A DNA stretch of 64,000 bases from Naegleria gruberi (taxonomy: Eukaryota), in NCBI GenBank assembly GCA_000004985.1, contig GG738902.1; one strand, 5' to 3'. Shown here in pieces: positions 19,898 to 63,597 of the stretch. Each line of letters begins with the position of its first letter. The first letter of the stretch is position 1. The notes beneath the pieces are model-generated. The model was not told the DNA's origin, did no database searches, and saw nothing but the letters and a program-made list of their open reading frames with translations. Both the position numbers and the translations under genes were made by a program.

Positions 19898-20337
19898 TTT
19901 TTTTTGTTTTGTGTAATGAATAAACGTGTGCGGTTTTATCCACTTGCAGAATGCATGTGTGTTAGTTGCAGTGAGGAATAATCGGAACTAATAATGTTTG
20001 ACCTTAATTCTCTGTTCACTGAATGTTACATGCATTTGGAGACAAAACTGGATCTAACCAAAGACCAGGATGAGGGTGGGATTTTCTTTGTAATCCTCTC
20101 TCTTCTCAGTTAAACAATAAGAACACCCTCAGAGAAAATTCAATTTCTATCATGGGTCAACTACAAGTATAGGATACTTCTGACAAACATAATTCAGTTG
20201 ACCTTCACTGGAAAGTTCATACCTTGATCCAAAACCAGTCCTCAAAAGTTCATTATTTTTATTATTAAAAAAAATTGCCAAGTCCTTTGTTGGAGGTTTG
20301 AAATTCATCGTCGTCGTCTTTGAGAAGGATAATAATA

Positions 20338-23300: not shown

Positions 23301-23679
23301 GTTAGATGTTTTGGAAGAAACCCAATTCTTTATTGAAAACCCATATGAAAATAATCGTTTGGTAATTTCACTCACTCAGTTGGACACCAGATATGTTCAC
23401 GATTCAAAGGATGATGATTCATGTATTGCAGTTCATTTGATTAGAGTTGATCAGCCATCCCCATCTAGATTGATCAAGATCAACAAGAAGGATATCATAG
23501 TTCAAGGTGATTACAAATACGACAGAGAAATAGTCGTTGATTGTTGTCTTCCATCAGGTTCCTACGTTGCCATACCTCACGAATATTTTACTACCAATTG
23601 TAAAAATACTGAACTGGGAGCATATACCATTAGAATTTTATCAGAAAGTAAGGTAAAGGTCACTACGATCAATCCTTAA
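20338..23679 (+). CDS. Calpain-family cysteine protease with a long N-terminal TPR-repeat region.
   Basis: The catalytic Cys motif is QGSLGNCWMLSAMAIVASH. The His block is HAYAILDA and the Asn/Trp block is KNPWANGIEWKGEW. The N-terminal 600 aa contain TPR-like 34-aa units. The first ATG is at 20338; the track start is TTG. Confidence 0.8.
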   Translation: MASSSNNNCILTTSDDGDSIYFVSSRDKQHTLKQLQTSTEHFQKKEYKVAIEILEKCVQIPSDTLITVSGCDFNDGECIKGIAEQADKQIVELIGKMFITKGLCYFNSTIVAESDEKKDLYFTKALQDFAAVARHYKLYKQLYYYDNQQSLLQDIDGLYVFVTTMKSYFLEGRCLQQLRGYQVDGISSLEKAVIAFSEAIQMAEYLKSNSSGVASEKVCLSALEQLPQYYLNRALSHNDINSYRPAEADFTSYISLIGNTNDKERKSTLFMIAYHNRGISLSYMQKYVEAIEDFTKSIEHYQEIPQNSPDKKQQFDSFLETHSKRAKAIHRFIVDHVHDCRDNNDKAMMDKILKLKTLACEDFEFVSKHKPNSVYNNHFNTSQILNMVATILSPILPKEVQFELYSQSIPHLRECIKQGNNYKTSLDLAKALSKTGTGQNEEILDLYNRAVKLLDVESSKKVSGEQKANIFFERGVLYNKMERVEQAIMDFTTSIDLHQQFLEAYFNRAILYYTKSRNTILAIKDLEKVIEIDPKDTTALIELAVLLASNGQVEEGTKRLNQTLECDPNNETAHKYLKILQENESPLPSNDIFEIREDHVEEVPFTIRQVQRPTSDNFGFKLFKKKTKEVDPEEQLKQSVPPPKTRSTNSMFLDNSLPPITSSILGAGTRADFDLPPHIVNLDTDLVWLRPSQITGVTKPALFVDGSNYKDVIQGSLGNCWMLSAMAIVASHDFVMKKVVVESKTNSAIGKYTFCLFKEGRNKEITIDDLIPCDVTTNSYVFSRSADPNELWVPLLEKAYAALYGNYFSLKGGHLKDALVDLTGGISFSYDIDPKKIEEVWQYLSCLPKQNSSSSSFKLMGARSETSASDYTGIINFHAYAILDAIEFPPHLTNSQRVRLIKMKNPWANGIEWKGEWSDYCPRWSPELRKYVGNDFNSQDGIFYMSLEYFVVQWNMIEGVEIFVNGKWNEFLATGRFDSNIRSDNNWMLDVLEETQFFIENPYENNRLVISLTQLDTRYVHDSKDDDSCIAVHLIRVDQPSPSRLIKINKKDIIVQGDYKYDREIVVDCCLPSGSYVAIPHEYFTTNCKNTELGAYTIRILSESKVKVTTINP

Positions 23680-26987: not shown

Positions 26988-29528
26988 TTAGCAAGATTTG
27001 TTGACTAGTTCAGCAAGAAGTTTTTTCATGTCCTCTCTATTAAAAACATCCAAAGTTACAATTTGAATTTGATTTCTCTTTTCATCATTCGAAACTTGAT
27101 TTAAAAATTGTTTGATAATGTACTTGGTATTCAATTCTAGATATTCATCAGTGACTTGAATTGATTGCTCAGGTTCTTTGAGGTCATCTTCGGTGAGTGG
27201 AATAATTCTCTCAGGAGGGTTGTTGAATTTGAGACAAGAATCAATCATTTCTTGAGTGATTCCTTCCTCAGATTGTTCATGCGTAAGAGATTCCTTAATT
27301 TGCTTTCGTTGACTTTCTAATTGTTGCTCCAATGTAGATAAATTAATGGAAACACTCACACAACGATTGTCTTGGAATCTTCTGGTCTTTCCTGAAGAGG
27401 CTTCAATAGAAACCTCAATGAAACTGCTTTGTCTTGAATGAGATTCATCCAATGATGATGAGCTTTCGTCAGTGACATTTCTTGTTGTTGCTGGCTTAAT
27501 GACTTGATCGGAAAGTTTTGGTTCTTCAAAGGTTTCAACCTTTTCCATACAAACAACTGGAGAATCCACAGAATCTTCGTCTCTCAAATGAGATGGAATT
27601 GGAGATTTCTTTTCTGGAGTGGCAGGAGGTGGAATTTGTGGGCTAACTTGAATAGTTTCCTTCTTTTCTGGCATGGTTGTTGGGTCAATTTTAGATGTTC
27701 TCTTTTGCATAATTTCCTCTGGGAATGGATCAAGACGAACGAAATTTTCTGGAGTTTCAGATAGTAAATTAGAAAGATAGGCATCTGACAAGTCGCAGTA
27801 AACTAATTTTCTCTTGAGTGATTCCTTCTTTGTAAAGACGAGAATGAATGGAACATGTTCCAATTCTGGCATGTTAACAGTTCTGTTGAAAAATTCCAAC
27901 GAATCAATTAATTGATTTTTCAATGTCAACAAATGGTTGTGTTGTAAACTTTGATGACGTGATAGGAAATTAGATGAAGCACTGTCGATGAGTGGCTTGA
28001 ATTTTGGTGATTTCAAAGTCTTTTTCTTGGCTCTTTCCTTTTCCAATAGATCAGTATGTTTCACATTGACACTACTACCAGTTGGTGATGTCAAGGTGGA
28101 AATGAGCTTGTCATTGGATGAGGCATCACTACCACTTTCATAAACTGGTTTTTCAAGAGTCAATACCTTATCTACAAGTGGAGAACCAGGAGTTCTCGAA
28201 TCAGTTATTGAAATTGTGGAGCCGTACAATCCCAAAATATCATCAACTGAATACTGATTGTAACAAGTGAGTGAAACAAAGTACAAAATGGCAACTCCCT
28301 GAGTTTTGATTGGTTTCTTACTGGAAGTAGCATTTTGTTCACTTGAATTGGCGGATGTATTGCTGTCAGTTGTGGTATTGAGTGGAGTAGATGAAGCATT
28401 TACAGATGATGAGCTAGGTGCTGTATTTTCAGATTTCTTCTTCTTCTTCTCTTCCTTTTCCTTATCCTTTCCAGAGGAGGTTGTTGAACTTGTCAATGGT
28501 TGAGATTCTTCATAGAGCTTGGAGAGCAAAATCTTCTTCCACTTTTTTCTATCTGATCTAACACCTGCACTGTCAATCATGTGAAGTGAACGAATGATTG
28601 GTTTTGGTTTTTGAGGGAGTGCATTCTTTTCAGAGTCCTTACTCTTTTTAGAGGAGCTTGTTGATGTGGTTGCATTCTCAGTGGTAGATGTGCTCTTTCT
28701 CTCTGTAATGATTTTAATTTCACTCTCATAGAAACCTCGAGTCATATTCGAAGCTAACAAGTATTCAGTTTCAGATTTCAATTCTGTATCAGAAAATCCC
28801 TTTCTAGCTCTTCTCAATCTTTCTGCTATTTGATTACAATGAGTAATGACATAATTGAAATGTTCGAAATGTTGCCATTGTGGTTGTTTTGGAACTGTAT
28901 TCACATTTCCATTTTTATCCAACACATTTCCTGAAATAATCGATCCCACTTGAGTATTTCCAAACAAGTACAATAATTCTGGTGAAATTTTGTTATAATA
29001 CAAGATGGTGTAAATTTTGTGTAAAATTGTCTCAGTTGCCCACAACATTGAAATTTGTTGCATCATTCCTGCATCACTCCATAACAATTCTGGCTTAACA
29101 ATTGCTTGTTGCAGTAAACACCGAGAAGCATCTCCCTGTTCTCCACCATTCTCATTCTCACCTGCCCCTGCCTCATTCGAGCACTGTTCCACGATTGAAA
29201 TTTTTACAATTTTCAACAATTTTTCATCAATTAAATTTTTTGATGATGGAAATCGATAATCAATTTCGTTGAAAATTTTCTTCTTGACACAAATAATGAA
29301 CAATAACCATGAGAACATGCTGCTGAGTAATTCTTCGTGGAATTTTAGTGAATTTTTGGACATGCTGCCACCCAATAGGAGATTGGACATTTTGCAGAAG
29401 GATGTCTTTCCCGAATTGCTTACACCCATAAGGAGAAGGTGATGGAGTTGTTGTTGTTGTTGCTGTTGTTGGAGATTATAGTCGAAGGGTTGATCTTCGT
29501 CTCCGTGCCGACTCATTTGTTGTCCCAT
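26988..29528 (-). CDS. Divergent heterotrimeric G-protein alpha-subunit-like protein of 846 aa, with a myristoylation-type N-terminus and large low-complexity insertions.
   Basis: MGQQMS has Gly2 followed by Ser6. The P-loop LLLMGVSNSGKTS matches LLLLGAGESGKST. HMIDSAGVRSDRKKWKKI matches FDVGGQRSERKKWIHCF. GVAILYFVSLTCYNQ matches VTAIIFCVALSDYD. PFILVFTKKES matches IILFLNKKDL. IQIVTLDVFNRE matches the TCAT region. Confidence 0.7.
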   Translation of the reverse strand: MGQQMSRHGDEDQPFDYNLQQQQQQQQLHHLLLMGVSNSGKTSFCKMSNLLLGGSMSKNSLKFHEELLSSMFSWLLFIICVKKKIFNEIDYRFPSSKNLIDEKLLKIVKISIVEQCSNEAGAGENENGGEQGDASRCLLQQAIVKPELLWSDAGMMQQISMLWATETILHKIYTILYYNKISPELLYLFGNTQVGSIISGNVLDKNGNVNTVPKQPQWQHFEHFNYVITHCNQIAERLRRARKGFSDTELKSETEYLLASNMTRGFYESEIKIITERKSTSTTENATTSTSSSKKSKDSEKNALPQKPKPIIRSLHMIDSAGVRSDRKKWKKILLSKLYEESQPLTSSTTSSGKDKEKEEKKKKKSENTAPSSSSVNASSTPLNTTTDSNTSANSSEQNATSSKKPIKTQGVAILYFVSLTCYNQYSVDDILGLYGSTISITDSRTPGSPLVDKVLTLEKPVYESGSDASSNDKLISTLTSPTGSSVNVKHTDLLEKERAKKKTLKSPKFKPLIDSASSNFLSRHQSLQHNHLLTLKNQLIDSLEFFNRTVNMPELEHVPFILVFTKKESLKRKLVYCDLSDAYLSNLLSETPENFVRLDPFPEEIMQKRTSKIDPTTMPEKKETIQVSPQIPPPATPEKKSPIPSHLRDEDSVDSPVVCMEKVETFEEPKLSDQVIKPATTRNVTDESSSSLDESHSRQSSFIEVSIEASSGKTRRFQDNRCVSVSINLSTLEQQLESQRKQIKESLTHEQSEEGITQEMIDSCLKFNNPPERIIPLTEDDLKEPEQSIQVTDEYLELNTKYIIKQFLNQVSNDEKRNQIQIVTLDVFNREDMKKLLAELVNKSC

Positions 29529-37895: not shown

Positions 37896-40800
37896 ATGCC
37901 ACTACACCAAACTTTCATCTACACTGGGAAGCTACAACCAGACGAAACTAAACATACAACATTTCCAACAACAAGAACAATATCGCGGAATAGTCGAATT
38001 TCTTTCTCTTCATCAACTATAACCACAAATTTAATTATTTCAATTCTACTGCTAGCATTTATCACCTCTCTCATACAATCTCTATATTATCAGATAGTGT
38101 ATTCATCCAACAATGACAACAAACTTTATAGTCACACATTCTTTGTGAATGCTGCCACTACATGCTATGGTGTTGACAGCACGGATCCTAGTGTTTGCTC
38201 GGGTAATGGAAATTGTACCAGTAAGAATAATTGTGAGTGCAATGATGGATTTAGTGGAAACAAATGTCAAACAGAGACGGTGAAATGTTATGGTGTAGTA
38301 GATACTGATCCTACAGTATGTTCAGGTCATGGAAATTGCTCTAGTAAGAATAATTGTCTGTGTGATTCAGGGTACAGTGGTAACAAGTGTCAAACCTTTG
38401 ATGGTACTAGTTCGATATCGTGTTATGGAATCGATTCGACAGATAGTTCAGTTTGTAATTACAATGGTAATTGCACAGCAACGAATAATTGCGTTTGTAA
38501 TCAAGGATATAGTGGAAATCAGTGCCAAACATTGGATAGCTCTTTTAAATGTTATGGAGTTGACTCTACTGACGTTTCTGTTTGTAATGGAAATGGAAAT
38601 TGTACATCAACTAATAATTGTGTCTGCAAATCTGGTTACACTGGGAATCAATGTCAAAATGAAGATAGTTCATTTAAATGCTACGGGGTTGACTCGACAG
38701 ATATCTCTGTTTGTAGCGGAAATGGAAATTGTACAAGCTCAAACAATTGCGAATGCAAATCTGGTTATACTGGTAATCAATGTCAATCAATTGATAGCTC
38801 TTTCAAGTGTTATGGTGTTGATTCGATAGATATCTCTGTTTGCAATGGAAATGGTAATTGCACTAGTTCAAATAATTGTGTTTGTAAATCTGGTTACAGT
38901 GGAAATCAATGTCAAACCTATGATGGCGGTAATAGTGGTTCATTTAAATGCTATGGAGTTGATTCTAGTGATATCTCTGTTTGTAGTGGAAACGGTAACT
39001 GTACTTCTGCTAATAATTGTGAATGTAAGGCAGGTTATAGCGGCAATCAATGCCAAACCTTCTCTACCTCTTTTAAGTGTTATGGTGTTGATTCGACAGA
39101 TAGTTCAGTTTGTAATGGAAATGGCAATTGCACCTCCTCTAATAATTGCGAATGTAAATCTGGATACACAGGAAACCAATGTCAATCAATTGATAGCTCG
39201 TTCAAGTGTTATGGTGTTGATTCGATGGATGTCTCTGTTTGCAATGGAAATGGTAATTGCACTAGTTCAAACAACTGTGTTTGTAAATCTGGTTACAGTG
39301 GGAATCAATGTCAAAACAATGATGGCAGTAGCACCATTAAATGTTATGGTATTGATTCGACTGACCCATCAGTTTGCTCAGGTCATGGTATCTGTTCCTC
39401 AACCAACGACTGCCAATGTGAAAATGGTTACAGTGGAAATAAGTGTCAAACCTTTGCAAACGAAACATCTACTTTCAAATGTTATGGTGTAGATTCTTCG
39501 GATCCTACTGTTTGCTCTGGTAATGGAAACTGTACATCCACCAACAATTGCCAATGCCAATCAGGATTCAGTGGAAATAAGTGTCAAACTACAGTTAATT
39601 ATTGCTTTGGTTATGATGAAAATGATAACAATGTTTGTGGTGGTCCAGATCGAGGAAAATGTACATCTAACGATGTTTGTGAATGTAAGGGAAGCTACGT
39701 TGGTTACGATTGTGGTGCTTTTGTTTCAGACAAATCACTCATCAAAATAACCTCAAAATATTCAAAGATTCTAAGCACCAATACTGACATTAATTTCATA
39801 ACAATTAGTATTCCAAAGCTCACTAACAGCTACAAGGGAATTGAGAATAGACTCAAGAGTACTTTGGTGATTTTCAGCAGTAATGTTACTATTGATTATT
39901 CCACTACTGGAATGATTGAACAGTTTCAATTGTATAAGAACATGACACTTGGCGTCTACTCTCTCAATTTAACCATTGTTGATACTACTTATAACATTCA
40001 AGTTGCTGCTACTGTTGAGAGCTCAATATTTTCTATACTGACTCTTGAACAAACTACTCAAAGTGTGGATACCTTGACAGCAAAAGAAATTGCACAAGTT
40101 ACAAAGCAATTGAACCAAATTACAAACCAACAACAATTTATTTCTACTGTGGTTTCTACTTTGAAAGAGAATGTTAATAATTACACAATTGATGATGGTT
40201 TAGATTTGACTTCGTCACTATTAGATATTTCCAATGTCAAGTTGGATACTAAATCTAAACTGGGAATATCTGAAACCCTAAAATCATATGCTCAAAATAT
40301 GATCGAAAAGTTTGACAATTTCACAACAGAACAAGTCAAACCAGTTGCAATTAACATCGTTTCTGTTGCCTCAAATATTTTAAATCAATCTATATTTACT
40401 GAACCATCATCTAAATTTGTGGTTATCGGTAATTCTATTCAATCCGTTGAAAAGACACTTTCCCTTGTTACGATTGTTAATCCAACAGAAAATTTATCAA
40501 TTGAAACTTCGATGATTAAGGTTCTTCTCATTTCAAAATCAGAATACAAGAATTTACATACTATAGATAAGGATTATACTCTTAATCTTCCAGAATTGGG
40601 GTTTGAATATTCGTTTGGTTTGGTAAAATATGAAAATTACTTGACAGAAGATTTGCAAAACACAAGTTCAATTTCTGACATTTTGCAAGTGAGACCAATG
40701 TTGAATGGTGTTTTTAGCCCTCTCAGACATTTATCCACTCCATTCAATTTGACTTTCTCTATCAAACATTTCGGTGCGCCACCAAGTAATGAAACAGTTG

Positions 40801-42590
40801 CAACTGTGGTTTGCAAATATTGGAACGAAACAACTAATGAATGGTTGAGTGATGGATGTAGCACCACAATCCTTTCGGCTGATCAAGTCTTGTGCTCATG
40901 CTATCACACAACAAAGTTTTCCTCCTTTGTGGATTATTCTAAAGTGAATTTCAGTACCAGAACTATTCAGACATCACTAGCCGTTGCCAACATCATTTTC
41001 AGTTCCTTATTTATTGCTGCAATTCTAGTTATCCTTGTGTTGTTGGTAATTTTCAGAAAATCCCAACCTGTAAAATCAAGATTTATTACTCCCTACTTTG
41101 CATTAACTGCCCTATTGATTGATAATTTGGTTTCTGGTATTATTGCCAAAGGACTTTTACTTGGAAATTACTCATTCAATGTAGTTATCATGACAAGTGT
41201 CTGTGCAGTAATTTCAAGTGCACTATTGGCAAGTGCAGTCTGGTGCTATTTTGTCATGTCCATTCGTTTCATCATCCACAGATACTTTTACGAATACATG
41301 ATGAGAGTGGTTGAGAACAGACAACAAAAGAATGCCGTTTTGGTTAAGATTTTGAACATTTTCAAACAGGATAAGCTTCTCATCTTGTCTAGTTTGATGA
41401 TTGGTTTTGGTTTTGTCTTGTACTTTACCATTTTTATCATTTTGAAGGGAGTGGATGCTTTCTCTGATTCTCAATTCACTTACTCAACAACCATTTCATT
41501 GTTTATTATTTTACTTTTCATGACGGCGATGGTAATTGCTATTTACATTTTAGACTTTTATTTGGACTTTACAAACAAACAATTAAGAGATGAATTAGTT
41601 GACATATCTGATGAAATAATGTTATTAGAAAGTGGAGATTCAAGCTTGAACAATCTCAATTCTAGAAAATCCCTTAAAATTACAAAACCTTTCGTTGATT
41701 TGTTGGAACAATCCCATATTAAGAAGTTTTTCAATTTATTCTACTCAAATGACAAGTTAATGTTCAGACCTGAGGCCATTTTCTTCATGTTAGGTATTTC
41801 ATTCTTTACCATTTCTTACTGCTTGGGATTTGCCAGTGTCCATGACCGTTACGTATCAAATCCAACTTCTACACAAATTCAAACAGTCGACATTCTCGAT
41901 GCAGTTGCATTCCTTTTTGAAGTCTTGATGACCGTTTGTTTGATTACTAGCTTTGGAGGTTTCTCTGTTGGTTGGGCCATTTTCACTGAAACCAGAAAGA
42001 GAAGTTGCTTCAAGGAATCCAGACAAGCTTCTGTCAATGCTGAGAGAATCAAATCTCAAAGACTTGAAAGCTACGAGGATCTTACCAACAGGTTTGATGT
42101 TTACAAGCTCATGAAGAACAAGTACTTGTTAAGACTCTTCCAACAATATGCCAAGTTGGAAATGTCACTAGAAAATTATATTGTTTGGATGCGAATTGAA
42201 CATGCCAGATCTAAATTTGCCAAATTGTGGGTTGATATGGATGGAGAAGCAGCATCTATCGAGGAATGGAATTCACTCTTGGAGGAATTACTTGGATGGC
42301 TAAAGGATCACTTGGATCCAGATGCAGAACTCGCTCTCAATGTCAGCCACCACTCTGTTAAACAATTCATTGCTGCTGTGCATATGCTAGAAAGCAAAAT
42401 TGACACCATTTCAACTAAGAACAGAGATTCCCTATTCAATTTGAAAGAAATGGTTAGACAAGCCATTGATTCATTAATCATCGATGTTCTCTACAATTTA
42501 ACAGACACCTATTCAAGATTTATCATCACGGATGAATACAAAGCTCTCAAAGAAGTAGAATCTGTTACCGAAATGAATACTTTCAAATAA
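37896..42590 (+). CDS. Giant adhesion-GPCR-like receptor of 1564 aa: about 14 EGF-like repeats, a GPS-like motif, 7 TM helices and a C-terminal RGS-like domain.
   Basis: The repeat is CYGVDSTD.SVC.GNGNCTS.NNC.C..GY.GN.CQ. The GPS-like motif is VVCKYWNETTNEWLSDGCSTTILSADQVLCSCYHTTKFSSF, matching C.C.H.T.F. Seven hydrophobic helices follow. The C-terminal FDVYKLMKNKYLLRLFQQYAKLEMSLENYIVWMRIEH resembles the RGS N-terminal helices. Confidence 0.75.
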   Translation: MPLHQTFIYTGKLQPDETKHTTFPTTRTISRNSRISFSSSTITTNLIISILLLAFITSLIQSLYYQIVYSSNNDNKLYSHTFFVNAATTCYGVDSTDPSVCSGNGNCTSKNNCECNDGFSGNKCQTETVKCYGVVDTDPTVCSGHGNCSSKNNCLCDSGYSGNKCQTFDGTSSISCYGIDSTDSSVCNYNGNCTATNNCVCNQGYSGNQCQTLDSSFKCYGVDSTDVSVCNGNGNCTSTNNCVCKSGYTGNQCQNEDSSFKCYGVDSTDISVCSGNGNCTSSNNCECKSGYTGNQCQSIDSSFKCYGVDSIDISVCNGNGNCTSSNNCVCKSGYSGNQCQTYDGGNSGSFKCYGVDSSDISVCSGNGNCTSANNCECKAGYSGNQCQTFSTSFKCYGVDSTDSSVCNGNGNCTSSNNCECKSGYTGNQCQSIDSSFKCYGVDSMDVSVCNGNGNCTSSNNCVCKSGYSGNQCQNNDGSSTIKCYGIDSTDPSVCSGHGICSSTNDCQCENGYSGNKCQTFANETSTFKCYGVDSSDPTVCSGNGNCTSTNNCQCQSGFSGNKCQTTVNYCFGYDENDNNVCGGPDRGKCTSNDVCECKGSYVGYDCGAFVSDKSLIKITSKYSKILSTNTDINFITISIPKLTNSYKGIENRLKSTLVIFSSNVTIDYSTTGMIEQFQLYKNMTLGVYSLNLTIVDTTYNIQVAATVESSIFSILTLEQTTQSVDTLTAKEIAQVTKQLNQITNQQQFISTVVSTLKENVNNYTIDDGLDLTSSLLDISNVKLDTKSKLGISETLKSYAQNMIEKFDNFTTEQVKPVAINIVSVASNILNQSIFTEPSSKFVVIGNSIQSVEKTLSLVTIVNPTENLSIETSMIKVLLISKSEYKNLHTIDKDYTLNLPELGFEYSFGLVKYENYLTEDLQNTSSISDILQVRPMLNGVFSPLRHLSTPFNLTFSIKHFGAPPSNETVATVVCKYWNETTNEWLSDGCSTTILSADQVLCSCYHTTKFSSFVDYSKVNFSTRTIQTSLAVANIIFSSLFIAAILVILVLLVIFRKSQPVKSRFITPYFALTALLIDNLVSGIIAKGLLLGNYSFNVVIMTSVCAVISSALLASAVWCYFVMSIRFIIHRYFYEYMMRVVENRQQKNAVLVKILNIFKQDKLLILSSLMIGFGFVLYFTIFIILKGVDAFSDSQFTYSTTISLFIILLFMTAMVIAIYILDFYLDFTNKQLRDELVDISDEIMLLESGDSSLNNLNSRKSLKITKPFVDLLEQSHIKKFFNLFYSNDKLMFRPEAIFFMLGISFFTISYCLGFASVHDRYVSNPTSTQIQTVDILDAVAFLFEVLMTVCLITSFGGFSVGWAIFTETRKRSCFKESRQASVNAERIKSQRLESYEDLTNRFDVYKLMKNKYLLRLFQQYAKLEMSLENYIVWMRIEHARSKFAKLWVDMDGEAASIEEWNSLLEELLGWLKDHLDPDAELALNVSHHSVKQFIAAVHMLESKIDTISTKNRDSLFNLKEMVRQAIDSLIIDVLYNLTDTYSRFIITDEYKALKEVESVTEMNTFK
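38160..39720 (+). repeat. Tandem array of about 111-114-nt units encoding the EGF-like repeats of the receptor.
   Basis: Near-identical nucleotide units, each beginning aagtgttatggtgttgattcgacagat... and ending ...ggaaatcaatgtcaa. This explains the long ORFs in the other forward frames. Confidence 0.8.
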
Positions 42591-53909: not shown

Positions 53910-54791
53910 TTATTCAGTCTTCTTTACATCAGTCTTCTTCCTCTTATAACTTTGAATATAAAAGTTCAAGAACAAGGCCAAGAAGGCAGCAACAGTCAAG
54001 TCAACCAAGAAGAATGGATAATAATTACCAGCACAAGTTTGGTTATCTCCATACTTGAACCACAACCAAACCTTTGGAACAACCAAATCAAAAACAAATT
54101 GAATAATTTGCATTCTGGTAATCCATGGCTTGATAACATTCAAACAACCTGGAGTAAAGATTGGAGAATTCTTAACAGTACAAACATAAAAGTAGAAATA
54201 CATGATAACGTGAACACCAGCATTCAAAGTTGAAGGGAACCACATCATTTGTGACTTTTCCAAAATGACATACCAACACAATAATAAGGTAATCATGTGA
54301 TGGAAGGTATGCAAGAAAGTCAAACTCTTACACTTGATCATTAAAAAGACAGTATCTAACAATTCATAATATTTGGACAAGTAGAAAATGTACAACCAGA
54401 AAGGAACTGCACCCTTTCCCATTCTATTAGGAACATCACAAGTTAAGGCAGAGAGTTTTTCCATAAAGCTAGCTTCTGGAATTTCATTAACAACTTCAAC
54501 AGCTTCACCAACAAATCCCAAAACCATGATCAAACTCAACACACTGAGGAAAATATTGTGGAATTTAATGAACATTTCCAAGAGTGGATGTTTCATTGGT
54601 GTATTATTTCTAACCTTTTTCATATACAGTGGAAGTAAATAAAGAGACAATCCATAACCAACAACAGCTGTTGCTGGATAGATCCAGTGAGATATTGGTG
54701 CTTCATTGTAAATGTACTTGAAATCGTGAATGTACTGGGACATTCCTTCACCATTAGGAATGAATTGTAAAAGTCTATCGATGAACACCAT
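53910..54791 (-). CDS. ELO-family fatty-acid elongase.
   Basis: Motifs KYYELLDTVF (K..E..DT), FLHTFHHMIT (H..HH), HVIMYFYFYV (H..MY.YY) and TRMQIIQFV (T..Q..Q), with a di-lysine C-terminus. The start was set at the first ATG; the track start is TTG. Confidence 0.75.
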   Translation of the reverse strand: MVFIDRLLQFIPNGEGMSQYIHDFKYIYNEAPISHWIYPATAVVGYGLSLYLLPLYMKKVRNNTPMKHPLLEMFIKFHNIFLSVLSLIMVLGFVGEAVEVVNEIPEASFMEKLSALTCDVPNRMGKGAVPFWLYIFYLSKYYELLDTVFLMIKCKSLTFLHTFHHMITLLLCWYVILEKSQMMWFPSTLNAGVHVIMYFYFYVCTVKNSPIFTPGCLNVIKPWITRMQIIQFVFDLVVPKVWLWFKYGDNQTCAGNYYPFFLVDLTVAAFLALFLNFYIQSYKRKKTDVKKTE

Positions 54792-55949
54792 ACTGATTCG
54801 AGATGATGATGAATATAAGAGTGGGTGTTGAGTGTGTTGGTTTTTTTCAAAAGTTTGAGCATACAGTCTTTGCACCAACCAGCCTTTATGGTTCAAACAA
54901 CAACAAGATCATCTTCACAGCCTCATTGGAAATTTTCAATAATTGAAACATCATCAACAAGGTGATGCTTGAAGCTGTTGTTTTTTGATTTTTACTCCAA
55001 CAACGGATCCTACAAATTGAAAAGTCCAAAATTGTGCGGTATGAAGCAATTTGTGTTATTAGGAAGTAAATAATATTGATAAGGTGGACGAGAATGGTGG
55101 AGGATCATTGATTGAGGATTATATGATGATTATTTTAATAATTAATATTGATCATCTTGTGTTGAATATTAATGTCGATTTTGTTGAGGTCTGAAGCCTA
55201 ATTGAACCGTAATTAAAATGGATGTTCACCACGCCTGTTGCCGATCCGATTTGTAATACTAGACAAACTCTTATTAAATAAATAGGCATGACCATCATCA
55301 ATGCACAATAATAATTTAATATACGATCGTCATGATGATGATGATGCAACTTTAACGTTGATGATGATGAGCATGGAAGGATGAAAGTTCTCCTGACGCG
55401 TGAATTTCAAAATGTGTATTTACTTTTGAAACTTCGTTAATAATAATAACAGAGAATTAAATAGTGGAATATCAACGGTACTATTATAATCTGTTATTGA
55501 TAATTTATTGTAAGGAAATTGAATTCAAATTGTAAGGTGGAGCAAATTTTCACACAGTACCAACTTGCTTCCATTATCGGTCTATTTTGATTTTGTCCGT
55601 TAGAGTGAAATTCCACCATTTGGAAAATTTTATTATTTGGGATTGTGAAATTTGACAGTGGTCACAGACCTTTTTTGTGGTTGTATAATAACTAGTAATT
55701 TACAGTAATGATAAGGTTGTTTGACTTTGAGGTGGAGTAAGGATGTCCTTCATGAGTGTCCTTACTTGTCGAACAAGGCATTTCGGTCACAAATGATTTT
55801 CAATACCAAGACTGCAAATATTACTTGTGAAAATAAGAAAAGGTGATAGATGTGTTTAGCCTAAAGGTTTAGGTCTGAAAACAGATTAGGATAATTTTCT
55901 TCAATTCGAATTAAAAAAATACCATTGAGATTGACCATCAAACGTCAAT

Positions 55950-57269
55950 ATGACTGAACAACAAACAGTGTTAATTGATGATCTTCAATTAATTTCAAAT
56001 CAATTTCCATGTGGTGATATTCTTTGGGAAATTTTATCATTTTGTAATGATTTTACATTTATTGTAATGAATTGTGCACTAGTTTCCAAACAGTGGTACC
56101 ATGTCATTTTGGAAAGATGTAAACTCTCATTAACCTGCAATTCGGATCAGAAATTGAAGGGAAAATTTCTTGAAAGAGTTTCAAATTTCACAGTTAAAAA
56201 GAATGAAGAAGGAAATTTGTTTAATTGTCAAATTTTTGAATGTTTGAAGAATTTGACAAGAATTGATATCAGTGATAATGAAATTAGCGATGAAAGGGTT
56301 AAGCATTTTGGTAATTTGACTCATTTGACAAATCTTGTAATTAATTGTAACGACATTGGTGTAGAGGGAGCTAAATGTCTTTGTCAACTGAATCAATTAA
56401 CAAGGCTTAATATTGGAAACAACAGTCTTGAGACTGAAGGTGCTAAATACATTAGTGAACTGAAGAATTTGACCAAACTTGATATCGCTCGCAACTGTAT
56501 TGGTGATAGAGGTGCTCAATTTATTACTGAAATGAAACAACTGACTTCTCTAAACCTTAACAGGAATGGAATTGAATATTTAGGAGCAAAATTTATTAGT
56601 GAAATGTATCAATTAACGAGTCTTGATATCAGTAACAATGACATTGGTTCTGAAGGAGCTAAACAAATTAGCAAACTCGACCAATTGACCAAACTATATA
56701 TTTACGATAATAATATTGGTGATGAAGGAGCTATGCACATTAGCGAAATGAAACAACTAACTAATCTCGATATTAGCAGGAATGATATTGACTCAGAAGG
56801 TGCCAAATCCATATGTGAACTCTATCAATTAACAAATCTCAATATTTGTTCGAATTACATTGGTGAAACAGGTGCCAAGCATATCAGTGAAATGAATAAT
56901 TTGACCATTCTTGAAATTGGCAGTAATGAAATTGGATCTGAAGGAGCGTATCATATCAGCAGAATGCACCAATTGACTAGGCTCATGATTTTTGCTAATG
57001 ATATTGGAGAAAAAGGGGCCAAACATGTTTCTGAGATGAAACAATTAACTAAACTCGATATTTATGATAATAATATTGGTGATGAGGGAACTATACACAT
57101 TAGCGAAATGAAACAATTAACCTACCTCGATGTTTCAGCCAATAATATTGGTCACGAAGGTGCTGAATATATTAGGAAATTGAATCGATTGACATTTCTT
57201 AATGTTCACTATAATTCATTCAGTGATAGTGAATCAGAACTTATAGAAAAGGAGTTAATGAAGGATTAA
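55950..57269 (+). CDS. F-box plus ribonuclease-inhibitor-type leucine-rich-repeat protein.
   Basis: N-terminal F-box-like LWEILSFCNDFTFIVMNCALVSKQWYHVI. About 14 repeats of 28-29 aa follow: QLTxLxIxxNxIGxEGAKxISEMK. Confidence 0.75.
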   Translation: MTEQQTVLIDDLQLISNQFPCGDILWEILSFCNDFTFIVMNCALVSKQWYHVILERCKLSLTCNSDQKLKGKFLERVSNFTVKKNEEGNLFNCQIFECLKNLTRIDISDNEISDERVKHFGNLTHLTNLVINCNDIGVEGAKCLCQLNQLTRLNIGNNSLETEGAKYISELKNLTKLDIARNCIGDRGAQFITEMKQLTSLNLNRNGIEYLGAKFISEMYQLTSLDISNNDIGSEGAKQISKLDQLTKLYIYDNNIGDEGAMHISEMKQLTNLDISRNDIDSEGAKSICELYQLTNLNICSNYIGETGAKHISEMNNLTILEIGSNEIGSEGAYHISRMHQLTRLMIFANDIGEKGAKHVSEMKQLTKLDIYDNNIGDEGTIHISEMKQLTYLDVSANNIGHEGAEYIRKLNRLTFLNVHYNSFSDSESELIEKELMKD

Positions 57270-58568: not shown

Positions 58569-58986
58569 TGATATAGTCATTCACATGTGGACATGAAATT
58601 TAATAAAAATTCAAGAAAACAATCTTTTTCTCAATGTTGGAATACATGAAAATTAAGAACTTGTAAGTCCCAATTAATGTAAATTCCTTGTCTGATTTGG
58701 CGAGATATGTTACAATGGAAAAATTCATTAAAATTCATCTGCGTCTCACTTTACTGGTCAGAACTTCTCCCGCCAAATCGTAAACGAGTAACCAATCATA
58801 ACTGTTACGCTTGAAAAATTTACTTTAGAAAAAAAAAACTCAATTCTCTCCCCTCTACACTCTTTCAGTTGTTGTTGCAACAAATTTTTATCGTAGTGAG
58901 GGTTTTTATATATTTTGTATAGTTCATCATCCAAATCCAAATCATCATCAACCACCTTACTTACTATATTATTTATTAAATCGAGA

Positions 58987-61900
58987 ATGGGTTGCGGAAA
59001 TTCAAAATCAACACTCGGTGTAGTTGAGACCGTCGAAGAAAAACCAAAACAACAAGCCACTGTCAATAACACCACTAATACTACCACTGCTGTCATGACA
59101 GGAACACTTGAACCAGAGGCACCAAAGAAGAAGGATGGTTTCTGTTACTTCTTTGGTCTTGACAGTCAAACTAAGGAAAACCTCACTGAAGGGAATAAGG
59201 ATATGAAGGAACTACTTGGAGGAAAAGGTGCTAACTTGTGCGAAATGTGCAATTTAGGTATTAATGTTCCTCCTGGATTTACTGTTTCTACAGAAGCCTG
59301 TGAACACTTTAGCCAGCTTCATAACCTTGCTACTTCAGCAGGAGAAGAAGGAGCTGAAAAAAAGAATCTCACTTTACCAGAAAACATTCAAACACAAGTC
59401 GACGAATATCTCAAAAAATTGGAACAAGCAACTGGAAAGAAATTTACCGATTCATATGAAAATGATACAGATAAGGTTCTCTTAATTTCTGTGAGATCAG
59501 GAGCTGCCATTTCAATGCCTGGAATGATGGACACTATTCTTAACCTTGGTATTTGTGACAAGAATATTACTCAACTCGTTAAAAACTTTGGTGGAAATGA
59601 AAAATTCGCTTGGGATTCATATCGTAGTCTCGTTCAAATGTTCGGTGAAGTTGTCATGTCAGTCAAGCCAGAACATTTCGAAGACAATATCAAAAAGCAA
59701 AAGGAAAAGAGAGGTATTACTCATGATTCTGAATTGAATTTGGAAGAAATTCAACAAATCGTTCAAGATCACAAACTTACTATTTTCGAACAAACTGGAG
59801 GTGAAGACTTCCCACAAGATGTTCGTCAACAATTGTACAGAGCTATTATTGCTGTCTTTAACTCATGGCACAATAAGCGTGCTGTGCAATATAGAAAGAT
59901 TCACAACATTACTGGTCTTAAGGGAACTGCTGTAAATATTCAATCCATGGTCTTTGGTAATGTTGATGAACGTTCATGTTCTGGTGTCTGTTTCAGTAGA
60001 AATCCTTCAACAGGTGAAAATCTATTCTATGGTGAATATATGATTCAAGCACAAGGTGAAGCTATTGTTGCTGGTCAAAGAACTCCAGAAAAGATTGAAA
60101 CCTTGGCTACTAACTTCCCAGAATGTAACACTAGTTTGAAGGAAATCAGTACCAAATTGGAAAAGCACTTTAAGGATGTCCAAGATATGGAATTCACAAT
60201 TGAACAAAATACTCTCTATATGTTGCAATGCAGAAATGGTAAAAAGACAATTCAAGCTTCTCTCAAGATTTACTGTGACATGATAGATGAAGGTCTTATC
60301 AATGAAAGAGAAGCCATCTCAAAGATTGATGCTACTCAACTCAACCAAATGCTCCATCCATTCTTGGATGATTCTGAAAAGGCTCATCACGAACCTTTGG
60401 CAACTGGTTTACCAGCAAGTCCTGGTGCTGTAGTTGGTAGAATTGCTTTCACCAGTGAACAAGCCATTAAAATGTCTGAAACCAGAAAGGAAGATGGTGA
60501 TGTCATCTTGGTCAGAGAACAAACAAGCACTGAAGATTTGGCTGGTATGCATGCTTCTCAAGGTTTCTTGACTACTAATGGTGGTCTTACTTCTCATGCT
60601 GCTGTTGTTTCTCGTCAACAAGGTAAATGCTGTGTAAGTGGATGTAGCTTGCTTTATGTCACTAGTGAAGAATCTTGTACAATTAATGGAACCCTCTTTA
60701 ATCAAGGTGATATTATTACTATTGATGGTTCAACTGGTAATGTCTACGGTAAGGCTCTCAAGACAACTAGACCAGGTATTTCTCAACCTGACTTTGTCAG
60801 AATTATGGATATTGAAAAGAAGTACAGAACTATGAGTGTCTATGCTAACGCTGATACATCTGTCGATGCTCATAAGGCTGTTGAATTCGGTGCTGAAGGT
60901 ATTGGATTGTGTAGAACTGAGCACATGTTCTTTGAAAAGACAAGAATAGTTGACATGAGAAGAATGATTGTTGCCTCCACCACAGAAAAGAGACAAGAAG
61001 CTATTAATGTTCTCAAAGATTATCAACGTTCTGATTTCCTTTCCCTCTTCCATGCTATGGAAGGAAAGAAGGTCACTATTAGATTGTTAGATCCTCCACT
61101 TCACGAATTTTTACCAGAAGATCCACAAGAAATTGAAGAATTGGCTTTGGCTCTTGGTGAATCTGTTAAGGATGTTACCCTTACTGTCTCTCAACTCAAG
61201 GAAAAGAATCCAATGTTGGGTCATCGTGGTTGTAGATTGGGTATTACCTTCCCCGAGATTACTCAAATGCAAGTTGAAGCCATTTTTGAAGCTGCTATTG
61301 ATGCTACTCATAAGGGCGAAGTTGTTGTTGATATTATGGTTCCATTAGTTCAATCTGTTCAAGAACTTGTCAACCAAAAGGAAATTATTGAAAAAGTTGC
61401 TTCATCATTGTTTGCCAAGCATGAAGACAGAAAATATCTCATTCATTACAGAGTTGGTTGTATGATTGAAACTCCAAGAGCTGTTTTGATGGCTAAAGAA
61501 CTTGCTGGTGTTGCTGATTTCTTCAGTATTGGAAGTAATGACTTGACTCAAATGACCTTTGGTTTCAGTAGAGACGACAGTGGTAAATTCCTTAAATATT
61601 ATCTCGAACGTGACTTGATTGAAAATGATCCATTCGAAGTTTTGGATACAGAAGGTGTTGGAAAGATTATTCAACTCACTGTCCAAACTGGTAGAGAAGC
61701 AAAGAATGGTTTGACTGTTGGTTTGTGCGGTGAACATGGTGGTGAATCTCACTCTGTTAAATTCTTGTACCAATGCGGTCTTTCATATGTCAGTTGTTCA
61801 CCTTATAGAATTCCAATCGCTAGACTTTCTGCTGCTCAAGAATCTGTCAAGAATTGGAGAAATGTTATTTGTGTTAATGGTGGTCCAGGATCAGGAAAGG

Positions 61901-62412
61901 GCACACAATGTGCCAAACTTGTTGAAAAGTATGGTTTTATCCATTATAGTACAGGTGATTTGTTGAGAGCTGAAGCTGCTAAGGATACAGAACAGGGTAG
62001 AATGATCTCGTCATACATTAAGGAAGGTAAGATTGTGCCTGGTGCTGTTACTCTTGGTTTGTTAAGAAATGCTATTTTGAACCATCCTAAAAAGGATGCT
62101 ACGTTCTTGATCGATGGCTTCCCAAGAGAAATGCAACAAGCTGTTGACTTTGAAGCTCATGTCTGTAAATTCAAGTTTGTCCTCTTCTTTGATTGTCCAG
62201 AAGAAATTTTGGAACAAAGATTGTTAGAAAGAGGTAAGACGAGTGGTAGATCTGATGACAATGCCGAAAGTATTAAGAAGAGATTCAAGACCTATAGCGA
62301 CCAAACAATGCCAGTTATTGGATACTTTAAGAAGACTGATAGAGTCAAGACAATTGATAGTTCAAAGACACAAGAAGAAGTGTTTGCTGAAGTATGCAAA
62401 TTATTTGATTAA
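58987..62412 (+). CDS. Pyruvate phosphate dikinase fused in-frame to an AK1 / UMP-CMP-kinase-type nucleoside monophosphate kinase, with an MGCGNSK myristoylation-type N-terminus.
   Basis: PPDK blocks: GGKGANLCEM, SVRSGAAISMPGMMDTILNLG, the catalytic His in GGLTSHAAVVSRQQG with CCVSGC, GLCRTEHMFF, NPMLGHRGCRLGITFPEI, IETPRAVL...GSNDLTQMTFGFSRDD, CGEHGG and CSPYRIPIARLSAAQ. The same frame continues into ICVNGGPGSGKGTQC...STGDLLRAE...LIDGFPRE...RGKTSGRSDDN. No stop or intron lies between the two halves. Confidence 0.85.
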   Translation: MGCGNSKSTLGVVETVEEKPKQQATVNNTTNTTTAVMTGTLEPEAPKKKDGFCYFFGLDSQTKENLTEGNKDMKELLGGKGANLCEMCNLGINVPPGFTVSTEACEHFSQLHNLATSAGEEGAEKKNLTLPENIQTQVDEYLKKLEQATGKKFTDSYENDTDKVLLISVRSGAAISMPGMMDTILNLGICDKNITQLVKNFGGNEKFAWDSYRSLVQMFGEVVMSVKPEHFEDNIKKQKEKRGITHDSELNLEEIQQIVQDHKLTIFEQTGGEDFPQDVRQQLYRAIIAVFNSWHNKRAVQYRKIHNITGLKGTAVNIQSMVFGNVDERSCSGVCFSRNPSTGENLFYGEYMIQAQGEAIVAGQRTPEKIETLATNFPECNTSLKEISTKLEKHFKDVQDMEFTIEQNTLYMLQCRNGKKTIQASLKIYCDMIDEGLINEREAISKIDATQLNQMLHPFLDDSEKAHHEPLATGLPASPGAVVGRIAFTSEQAIKMSETRKEDGDVILVREQTSTEDLAGMHASQGFLTTNGGLTSHAAVVSRQQGKCCVSGCSLLYVTSEESCTINGTLFNQGDIITIDGSTGNVYGKALKTTRPGISQPDFVRIMDIEKKYRTMSVYANADTSVDAHKAVEFGAEGIGLCRTEHMFFEKTRIVDMRRMIVASTTEKRQEAINVLKDYQRSDFLSLFHAMEGKKVTIRLLDPPLHEFLPEDPQEIEELALALGESVKDVTLTVSQLKEKNPMLGHRGCRLGITFPEITQMQVEAIFEAAIDATHKGEVVVDIMVPLVQSVQELVNQKEIIEKVASSLFAKHEDRKYLIHYRVGCMIETPRAVLMAKELAGVADFFSIGSNDLTQMTFGFSRDDSGKFLKYYLERDLIENDPFEVLDTEGVGKIIQLTVQTGREAKNGLTVGLCGEHGGESHSVKFLYQCGLSYVSCSPYRIPIARLSAAQESVKNWRNVICVNGGPGSGKGTQCAKLVEKYGFIHYSTGDLLRAEAAKDTEQGRMISSYIKEGKIVPGAVTLGLLRNAILNHPKKDATFLIDGFPREMQQAVDFEAHVCKFKFVLFFDCPEEILEQRLLERGKTSGRSDDNAESIKKRFKTYSDQTMPVIGYFKKTDRVKTIDSSKTQEEVFAEVCKLFD

Positions 62413-62435: not shown

Positions 62436-63311
62436 CTAATTTCCATACGTCTCTGCAAACTTTTGAAGTAAATATTGGTAAGCTGTTTTGTTAACAGATT
62501 CAATAAAAAACTCCTTGTCTGGTTGTCCAAAGAATGCAATACTATACCTATCTGATTCATAATTAGACAGGACAACTTGATGAGGAACACTCTTATATTC
62601 TTGATCAGTCCATTCTTGCATCAAATCTCCACAATTTACAATAATGGCATCTTTAACACAAGGTGCATCAATCATTTCATTAGTGATTCGGTCCAAAACT
62701 TTCAAACCACCTGTACTATCCTGACATAACAATGTTATTGAACCATAGTCAGAGTGAATTCCACATCCATTACTAAATTTTGGAGCACTTGAATCAAGTT
62801 TAGGATAATGTAAATATCTCAAACTATGTTCCATTTCAGAGTGAGCCAGAGCAAAATCATCCGTTTGTTTACTCAATCCTCTCTGTAAATCACCCAATAA
62901 TTCAATCAATAGACCATGCAATTCCAAGAATAGTTTCTTTGAAAATTCCTCAAATCCCTTAACAGAACCATGTTCATCTTCATTAGGAAAATAAACTTTT
63001 CCATAATCTACATCCGACTTGGACATTCGAACATTGTAAGCCTCCTTCAGATCAATGTCCTTTCCATTTAATTTCTCACTATTCGTACTAATGTAACCAC
63101 TTTCTCCCTTCACTGTATGAAGTTCTTGTTTCACTTGTTTCGGCAATTCAAAAAACAGTTTTGAAAATTCAAAAGCTTGATCAATTAATGGAATTAATGG
63201 ATGATCAACAAGATAGAAAAATCCGATACTGTTCAGGGCATGTTTAATTTCGTCCAATCTCGTGTCGCTGTTGTATGAAATGATGGGAATTAAAGTTTCG
63301 TTTGGTTTCAT
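62436..63311 (-). CDS. 2-oxoglutarate/Fe(II)-dependent dioxygenase (isopenicillin-N-synthase-like fold).
   Basis: GCGIHSDYGSITLL has the H.D motif. KSVPHQVV supplies the distal His and RYSIAFFGQP the R.S motif. The first ATG at 63311 is in AAAAAAATG context; the track start is GTG. Confidence 0.7.
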   Translation of the reverse strand: MKPNETLIPIISYNSDTRLDEIKHALNSIGFFYLVDHPLIPLIDQAFEFSKLFFELPKQVKQELHTVKGESGYISTNSEKLNGKDIDLKEAYNVRMSKSDVDYGKVYFPNEDEHGSVKGFEEFSKKLFLELHGLLIELLGDLQRGLSKQTDDFALAHSEMEHSLRYLHYPKLDSSAPKFSNGCGIHSDYGSITLLCQDSTGGLKVLDRITNEMIDAPCVKDAIIVNCGDLMQEWTDQEYKSVPHQVVLSNYESDRYSIAFFGQPDKEFFIESVNKTAYQYLLQKFAETYGN

Positions 63312-63597
63312 TTTTTTGAGTTTCGTAAGGTAGGTACTTTCCCAAGTCCACACATAACTTGGTTAAAATTCACAGATTTCTTCAATAAATCTTTATTAGA
63401 AAGTTCCTTTCCTCAACATTTTCATCCAATTATTGAAGGGAAGATTTGGCGCCAAAAAATTTCCGGATATTGTAAACTGGTTCTGCTGGTTGCAAAGCAT
63501 TTTTCCAGCAAAACAAAAGTTTGTGTTTTCTACCAACTGACAAACCTATTTAAGACGAAACCAATTCGAAACACCACTAAACAAAAACAACAAAAAA

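Follow-up and report, generated by a model that had tools for sequence, protein, structure and literature searches.

Both pyruvate phosphate dikinase (PPDK) and adenylate kinase are known enzymes, as is their functional pairing, and N-terminal acylation signals are known as well. The question raised by a 64,000-nucleotide stretch of the Naegleria gruberi genome (contig GG738902.1 of assembly GCA_000004985.1; hereafter the window) is whether a single gene at positions 58987..62412 joins a PPDK to a kinase of this kind behind a lipid-anchor signal and, if so, what the resulting protein would do. We found that the fusion architecture, with both domains complete, is confirmed at these coordinates, and a real PPDK-kinase fusion that is conserved in Naegleria is in our judgement almost certain. 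The best overall explanation of the locus, and one that its sequence makes reasonably probable, is that it encodes a lipid-tethered bifunctional PPDK/adenylate kinase module. What appears to be new, within the accessible literature and the collections searched, is the covalent PPDK-kinase architecture with its predicted acyl anchor.

One reading frame encodes a complete PPDK and a complete kinase

An earlier note on this DNA, made from the letters alone, had proposed that PPDK and a nucleoside monophosphate (NMP) kinase share one uninterrupted open reading frame (ORF). The window bears this out, since a single ORF spans 58915..62412 on the plus strand, with neither a stop nor a frameshift between the two domains. 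The ORF has its first in-frame ATG at position 58987; going upstream from there, two in-frame stops are reached after 31-32 codons without another ATG on the way. From this ATG the coding sequence (58987..62412, plus strand) is intronless and comprises 1141 codons and a stop; its product of 1141 amino acids (aa) begins MGCGNSKSTL and is 100% identical to a protein of N. gruberi NEG-M (XP_002671847.1, EFC39103.1, UniProt D2VVU5) whose database annotation reads only "pyruvate phosphate dikinase", with the kinase half unmentioned. The four Pfam domains that a fusion of this kind should contain were all found, and in order: PPDK_N at aa 75-371 (2e-51), PEP-utilizers at aa 505-584 (2e-19), PEP-utilizers_C at aa 605-952 (6e-79) and ADK at aa 964-1117 (2e-48). 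At the junction the last PPDK helix (..PIARLSAAQESVK) leads through NWRN into the first kinase strand, VICVNGGPGSGKG, which together with the P-loop reads VICVNGGPGSGKGTQC. The halves are thus separated by about five residues (NWRN), without stop, frameshift or spacer.

The PPDK half (aa 52-956; 59140..61854, plus strand) is complete, as indicated by Pfam, by comparison with the Protein Data Bank (PDB), by the TIGR01828 model and by a confident predicted fold. Its nucleotide (AMP/ATP)-binding ATP-grasp domain, PPDK_N (59209..60099, plus strand), carries the columns GGKGANL, SVRSGA and QGE..VAG.RTP that are invariant in the PPDK alignment. The mobile phospho-histidine domain, PEP-utilizers (60499..60738, plus strand), contains the catalytic His537 (60595-60597) within GGLTSHAAVVSR at aa 532-543, and the TIM barrel that binds phosphoenolpyruvate (PEP) and pyruvate, PEP-utilizers_C (60799..61842, plus strand), contains Cys914 (61726-61728) of the motif CGEHGG (aa 914-919); Pfam, PDB and alignment agree on both domains. 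A PDB search aligned aa 67-956 end to end with the PPDK of Clostridium symbiosum (E 6e-273). The fused PPDK passes the TIGR01828 equivalog model with 1151.9 bits (cut-off 843.45), scores far under the cut-offs of the PEP synthase models, and retains every column that is invariant across 65 PPDKs, including His537, Thr535, Cys914, Arg643, Arg699, Glu828, Asn851 and Asp852. AlphaFold, run on a PPDK-only alignment, folds this part confidently. The claim of a complete PPDK with its catalytic histidine and its PEP- and nucleotide-binding blocks therefore holds. Canonical PPDKs (C. symbiosum 1KBL, maize 1VBG and Trypanosoma brucei 2X0S) are the same three-domain enzyme over their full length (E ~1e-270) and have all of their catalytic and substrate-binding residues in common with the fused PPDK, but they lack both the acylation-motif leader of about 50 aa and the C-terminal NMP kinase of the Naegleria fusion.

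The fusion is conserved in three Naegleria species

Full-length orthologues of the fusion are present in N. fowleri (P0002) and N. lovaniensis (P0121), and share 74-75% identity with that of N. gruberi. The N. lovaniensis protein has 1139 aa, and that of N. fowleri 1135 aa, or 1142 aa once a skipped micro-exon is restored. The loci in these two species are syntenic (Mito_carr, ELO, a 224-aa gene, the fusion and SNAP), and an ELO gene lies upstream of the fusion in the N. gruberi window too. In both N. fowleri and N. lovaniensis the fusion gene has five exons and four introns. Three introns interrupt the kinase-coding region, and one of these lies just eight residues past the junction; with such a structure the kinase would be expressible solely by splicing within the fusion gene. 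The residues GGPGSGK are encoded in both species on a 21-nt micro-exon of their own between GT..AG introns (9075-9095 of locus L001, N. fowleri VFQX01000007.1; 9020-9040 of locus L083, N. lovaniensis). The N. lovaniensis gene model includes this micro-exon; the N. fowleri model, FDP41_010731, skips it, which is why the P-loop appears to be deleted in the N. fowleri database protein although the DNA encodes it intact. This is one of two annotation errors flagged by our analysis, the other being a spurious intron in Willaertia (see below).

Comparison of N. fowleri with N. lovaniensis gave ratios of nonsynonymous to synonymous substitution rates (dN/dS) of 0.033 for the PPDK and 0.037 for the kinase, indicating that both halves are kept under equal, strong purifying selection. 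The possibility that the fusion is an artefact of assembly or annotation, in which loss of a stop codon or a faulty gene model joined neighbouring genes, could appeal to the general frequency of merged models and to the two annotation errors just mentioned, but it is effectively refuted, and in our view has a negligible chance of being correct, given the uninterrupted ORF in the raw window with domains some five residues apart and no intergenic spacer, the same architecture in three independently assembled species, introns that leave the kinase of N. fowleri and N. lovaniensis without an independent start, and equal dN/dS on both sides of the junction.

The fusion is confined to Naegleria within the collections searched

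When the full protein was used as the query, only Naegleria proteins covered it to 100%, and among the matches listed all others end where the PPDK ends. An exhaustive HMMER search with aa 700-1141 against 1.84 billion cluster representatives, a scan in which fusions inside 50%-identity clusters represented by an unfused PPDK would stay hidden, returned one junction-spanning protein, the Naegleria cluster; the remaining top matches were multi-ADK proteins or plain PPDKs. No junction-spanning locus was found in a metagenome scan, where 80 loci match the PPDK half or the kinase half singly. Consistent with these results, phmmer searches with both halves against the 275 retrieved proteins found both present in three Naegleria proteins only. 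A further query with aa 880-1035 against a 5.8-billion-protein collection yielded no short fragments with PF02896 and PF00406 together, its matches all being <275 aa; this query missed its own protein and is uninformative on full-length fusions. The coverage of eukaryotes in these searches is that of protein collections, as opposed to direct searches of genomes. Within the collections searched, the PPDK-kinase fusion is confined to Naegleria.

Several apparent candidates were rejected on inspection. The apparent junction match of locus L057 (residues 53-151) proved to be a stand-alone kinase with a signal-like N-terminus, and five proteins with two matched stretches (P0195, P0240, P0263, P0264 and P0208) have no ADK domain. 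One of these, P0240 from the representative library (3697 aa), has an Enolase_C domain (aa 137-430) and, further along, a complete PPDK (aa 1801-2717), enzymes of consecutive glycolytic steps; it may be a second metabolic fusion or else an artefact of gene merging. We note also that tandem arrays of 3-8 ADK domains make up many predicted proteins (P0127 and P0128; for example 1503 aa with 8 domains); such proteins outscore others for short-type kinase queries and can mask rarer architectures in ranked lists.

The earlier note knew of no description of this architecture. We likewise found none in the accessible literature, although an earlier mention in the key Naegleria papers of 2010-2011 is possible; what is not new is the sequence, which has been public since the 2010 genome under the annotation of a PPDK.

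The N-terminus carries a predicted dual-acylation signal

The first seven residues of the protein, MGCGNSK (58987..59007, plus strand), resemble a signal for N-myristoylation (Gly2, Ser6, Lys7) combined with palmitoylation at Cys3. The start has the form of such a signal, as had been proposed: GCGNSK fits the PROSITE pattern PS00008, and the Met-Gly start, Ser6, Lys7 and a Cys3 available for palmitoylation are all in place. All three species (N. gruberi, N. fowleri and N. lovaniensis) share MGCGNSKST without a single change. The signal is followed by a low-complexity, poorly conserved leader or tether (aa 8-51; 59008..59139, plus strand) that is predicted to be disordered, with AlphaFold confidence (pLDDT) <30 over residues 1-47. 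Over aa 1-57 the N. gruberi leader is only 39-41% identical to those of N. fowleri and N. lovaniensis, and its dN/dS between the latter two species is 0.18. Each Naegleria species, as well as Willaertia, has in addition an unfused PPDK (887-931 aa) that lacks the MGC motif as well as the kinase, and the unfused paralogues P0003, P0124, P0005 and P0004 lack both MGCGNSKST and the leader. Only the fused paralogue, therefore, bears the lipid-anchor signal.

It is formally possible from DNA alone that an unrecognised upstream exon exists, and acylation is here a prediction; both points speak against a membrane-bound protein and for the alternative that MGCGNSK stays unlipidated or does not form the real N-terminus, such that the product would be a soluble cytosolic PPDK-kinase. 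We consider this alternative improbable. The first nine residues are the same in three species, beside a leader that is only 39-41% identical, there are in-frame stops upstream and no other ATG, the pattern for N-myristoyltransferase is matched with Cys3 present while the unfused paralogues lack the motif, and a related kinase of Willaertia likewise starts with an acylation-type sequence, MGSSCSS. Anchoring of the fusion by a Gly2 myristate and a Cys3 palmitate is thus predicted, and we regard it as likely.

Proteins with comparable N-termini are known. In trypanosomatids, dual N-terminal acylation sends proteins to flagellar membranes, and the calflagins/FCaBP, Leishmania SMP-1 and HASPB resemble the fusion in having Met-Gly and a nearby Cys (PMC3785460); these proteins have no PPDK, and for the Naegleria protein acylation is read from the sequence motif. 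Adenylate kinase 2 of Plasmodium falciparum (PfAK2) is an acylated adenylate kinase, again with Met-Gly and a nearby Cys and again with no PPDK (PMC8182054).

The kinase half belongs to the AK1/UMP-CMP kinase superfamily

The C-terminal part of the fusion (aa 957-1141; 61855..62409) is, by Pfam, PDB, TIGR models and tree, a short-type NMP kinase of the AK1/UMP-CMP kinase superfamily, and in a PDB search NMP kinases matched it over aa 959-1136 (E 2e-60 to 1e-49), values that, like those of the Pfam and PPDK matches, lie far outside what chance would give. The motifs that had been named for it are present, all on the plus strand like the domain itself: the P-loop GGPGSGKGTQC (aa 965-975; 61879..61911); LIDGFPR (aa 1041-1047), within a longer LIDGFPREMQQ (aa 1041-1051; 62107..62139) that provides the NMP-site Arg and has a Gln at the position of the Gln in AK1 REVQQ; and the catalytic arginines of the short LID segment RGKTSGRSDDN (aa 1082-1092; 62230..62262), as placed by alignment and motif. 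The alignment also places the NMP-site motif STGDLLR at aa 988-994 (61948..61968, plus strand), with Thr as in AK1.

The earlier note had gone further and called the kinase AK1-type. What stands of this is a complete short-type NMP kinase with an AK1-like Thr and Gln. The domain aligns without gaps over 182 residues with vertebrate AK1 (1Z83, 3ADK) and shares with it the Thr of STGDLLR and the Gln of RE.QQ that belong to the AMP site, but with 209.4 bits it falls below the cut-off of 284.1 of the AK1 equivalog model TIGR01360, for which reason it is not an AK1 orthologue. It passes TIGR01359, the model of the UMP-CMP kinase family, with 228.5 bits against a cut-off of 207.6, this being a subfamily model and not an equivalog. 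Judged by these models, the kinase domain is a member of the AK1/UMP-CMP kinase superfamily, formally of TIGR01359, and is not an AK1 orthologue.

Which nucleotide such a kinase would phosphorylate is the point at which a second alternative arises, namely that the domain acts on pyrimidine nucleotides as a genuine UMP-CMP kinase and not as an adenylate kinase, in which case the fusion would couple PPDK-made ATP to the phosphorylation of UMP or CMP, or would mean mere co-expression or co-localisation. The two model scores favour this alternative and count against AMP as the acceptor, and so do three further observations. The best solved relatives of the domain are uridylate and UMP/CMP kinases, with yeast URA6 (3e-62) ranking above the Dictyostelium and human UMP-CMP kinases and these in turn above AK1; the NMP motif of N. 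lovaniensis has Ser in place of Thr; and the UniRef name of the N. lovaniensis orthologue is 'UMP-CMP kinase'. We nevertheless consider a genuine UMP-CMP kinase unlikely. TIGR01359 is only a subfamily model, and in a neighbour-joining (NJ) tree, the one method used and one of moderate support, the Naegleria and Willaertia kinases form one clade (74% bootstrap) apart from AK1 and from the characterised UMP-CMP kinases URA6, CMPK1 and Dictyostelium UMPK. URA6 and the other members of that family (1UKY, 1QF9, 1TEV) share with the fused domain a short LID, the P-loop, the arginines and a pass of the family model, but they are free enzymes. The NMP site of the fused domains reads S(T/S)GDLLR, with Thr in AK1 as against Ala (SAGDLLR) in URA6 and in the Dictyostelium and human UMP-CMP kinases. 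Exchange of this Thr for Ala in AK1 is reported from mutagenesis work to shift specificity toward pyrimidine monophosphates. The Gln of RE.QQ is common to the fused domains, AK1 and URA6, whereas the human and Dictyostelium UMP-CMP kinases have Asn. Furthermore, PPDK makes or uses AMP and so has an obvious partner in an adenylate kinase, a logic that does not extend to UMP or CMP. In addition, the N-termini of relatives in the heterolobosean clade, either an acylation motif or an extension resembling Dpy-30/RIIa, are of a localisation type, and this is not what one would expect of a housekeeping enzyme of pyrimidine metabolism. Weighing these points, we regard AMP as probably the physiological acceptor of the fused kinase, an assignment favoured mainly because the kinase is fused to PPDK. 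It also speaks for AMP that NCBI gives fungal members of the same family the name bifunctional uridylate/adenylate kinase.

The closest homologues of the kinase are themselves heterolobosean, being proteins of 244 aa from Willaertia and N. lovaniensis (~70% identity), another from Willaertia whose annotated length is 190 aa, and one from Acrasis. Five stand-alone relatives of ~242-244 aa (P0278 from Willaertia, P0279 from N. lovaniensis, and P0286, P0290 and P0292) carry a conserved N-terminal extension of ~55 aa, for which Pfam gave sub-threshold matches only, to Dpy-30, the Tex55 C-terminus and the DUF5586 N-terminus. This extension may represent RIIa/Dpy-30-like docking helices of the type found on ciliary proteins.

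A proposed lipid-tethered PPDK/adenylate kinase module

Adenylate kinase catalyses 2 ADP <-> ATP + AMP, and the sum of this reaction and that of PPDK, with pyrophosphate (PPi) and phosphate (Pi), is 2 ADP + PEP + PPi <-> 2 ATP + pyruvate + Pi. Coupled chemistry of this kind is the natural reading of the fusion, since it is the plain sum of two textbook reactions, and from the sequence of the two domains we hold it to be fairly probable. The protein has four parts, a predicted dual-acylation signal, a disordered tether of ~45 residues, a complete PPDK and a complete short-type NMP kinase, and as a whole it would interconvert 2 ADP + PEP + PPi and 2 ATP + pyruvate + Pi. The kinase would make or remove AMP right beside PPDK, for which AMP is a scarce substrate in one direction and an inhibitory product in the other. 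The lipid anchor would hold the module on a membrane, with the plasma or flagellar membrane as our leading guess, and the unfused PPDK paralogue would serve the cytosol. The earlier note had spoken of channelling. For much of aa 958-1141, where the alignment held only two sequences, AlphaFold pLDDT is <50, and the model contains no information on how the kinase packs against PPDK; channelling itself is for this reason unsupported. The part of the idea that is supported is co-localisation within one polypeptide.

The same pairing is found elsewhere in the form of separate proteins. C4 chloroplasts contain a trio of PPDK, adenylate kinase and pyrophosphatase in which the first two balance AMP, ADP and ATP. 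PPDK needs AMP, and to our knowledge all schemes of PPi-dependent glycolysis, whether for Entamoeba, Giardia or trypanosome glycosomes, as well as those of C4 photosynthesis assume that adenylate kinase supplies or removes it; a natural fusion conserved by selection provides 'Rosetta-stone' evidence for this partnership. In trypanosome glycosomes, PPDK and adenylate kinase are described as jointly balancing adenine nucleotides (PMC4106842). Whereas in glycosomes and C4 chloroplasts the separate proteins are gathered by an organelle, in Naegleria they form one polypeptide with a lipid-anchor signal. A single recombinant protein would allow direct measurement of the coupled reaction and of any advantage that proximity confers.

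The direction in which the module would run is where the best-surviving alternative lies. In this alternative the fusion would chiefly make PEP for gluconeogenesis (pyruvate + ATP + Pi -> PEP + AMP + PPi), and the fused kinase would clear the inhibitory AMP (AMP + ATP -> 2 ADP) in the manner of the C4 chloroplast trio. The fusion would suit this direction equally well, and the sequence itself does not discriminate between the two. PPDK is reversible (PMC12965863), and N. gruberi is reported to be a strict aerobe that oxidises lipids (PMC6856725), a way of life that calls for gluconeogenesis and means that a glycolytic, ATP-forming role is not assured. Each of these points detracts from an ATP-forming role. 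On the other side, glycolysis in Naegleria has a PPi-dependent, AMP-sensitive phosphofructokinase (PMC7729029), the usual partner of a glycolytic PPDK, and a membrane tether is easier to explain by local ATP supply than by PEP synthesis. We therefore treat a PEP-forming role as a serious alternative to an ATP-forming one, though on balance rather unlikely to be the main role.

The conserved anchor signal suggests that Naegleria puts an ATP/PPi module at a membrane, a notion that bears on how the motility of this amoeboflagellate, or membrane processes, are supplied with power and on why a lipid-burning aerobe retains PPi-dependent enzymes. Other flagellates anchor phosphagen-kinase and adenylate-kinase relays in their flagella, and the Naegleria protein, if the ATP-forming reading is correct, would be a PPi-based counterpart of these relays. 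A flagellar location of the fusion is a tentative proposal. When Naegleria differentiates, glycolytic enzymes are reported to be among the proteins associated with the flagellum (PMC7729029, citing Fritz-Laylin & Cande 2010). The full picture, in which a PPi-driven module tethered to the flagellar or plasma membrane regenerates ATP from local ADP with PEP and PPi, and which arose when a PPDK paralogue joined an already acylated kinase gene, is speculative and, taken as a whole, doubtful. The brain pathogen N. fowleri carries the fusion as well, humans lack a counterpart, and the protein is for these reasons a possible parasite-specific drug target.

Origin of the two halves

The unfused PPDKs of Naegleria and Willaertia (XP_002678324.1, 915 aa; P0124; P0005; P0004) are 62-65% identical to the fused protein over the PPDK part and are of the same lineage, but they form a separate clade. 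In the PPDK tree, the fused PPDKs (100% bootstrap) are sister to a group of Willaertia and unfused Naegleria PPDKs (94%), a topology that may reflect either a duplication of PPDK before the split of Naegleria and Willaertia or faster evolution of the fused copy. A fused PPDK was not found in the annotated Willaertia proteome, and because the tree dates the duplication before that split, the evolutionary story is incomplete; this tells against the origin that we propose.

The kinase half has a free-standing relative in Willaertia magna, ABK040_005677. This protein is annotated with 190 aa and a 75-nt intron, and the DNA contains one uninterrupted ORF of 215 aa instead (8001-8648 of locus L002, JBEGDK010000149.1), which encodes the stand-alone kinase with the acylation-type start MGSSCSS mentioned above. 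It falls in the same heterolobosean kinase clade as the fused domains and shares with them STGDLLR and KKTD[KR]VKT, but it has no PPDK and the tree gives no clear orthology to the fused domains. We rejected homology of its leader with the Naegleria leaders as weak, since 16/2000, 184/2000 and 617/2000 shuffled sequences reach the score. The acylation-type start suggests, as no more than a hypothesis, that an acylated kinase may have predated the fusion. The fusion probably arose when a PPDK paralogue was joined to a heterolobosean kinase lineage that is still free-standing in Willaertia.

Outside Heterolobosea, the nearest PPDKs are those of DPANN archaea (Woesearchaeota and Nanoarchaeota) and of candidate-phyla bacteria, at 51-54% identity, and no other eukaryotes occur among the best 120 matches to the Naegleria PPDK paralogues. 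This pattern may hint at lateral transfer or may reflect the composition of the databases alone.

Other features of the window

The window has 33-36% G+C, a composition in keeping with N. gruberi, as are the genes it contains, among them those for a leucine-rich-repeat protein, an ELO elongase, a calpain and an EGF-repeat protein. It encodes several large proteins that have no link to the fusion: a TPR-calpain of 1119 aa (20320-23676, plus strand), a protein of 846 aa in which a partial G-alpha domain was recognised (26991-29528, minus strand) and an EGF/teneurin-like repeat protein of 1564 aa (37896-42587, plus strand). Upstream of the fusion, the ELO fatty-acid elongase gene (53913-54896, minus strand) has the same relative position as in N. 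fowleri and N. lovaniensis, and in N. gruberi a gene for a 439-aa leucine-rich-repeat protein (55950-57269, plus strand) lies between the two. A 2OG-Fe(II) oxygenase gene (62436-63353, minus strand) converges on the 3′ end of the fusion, and the stop codons of the two genes are 23 nt apart.

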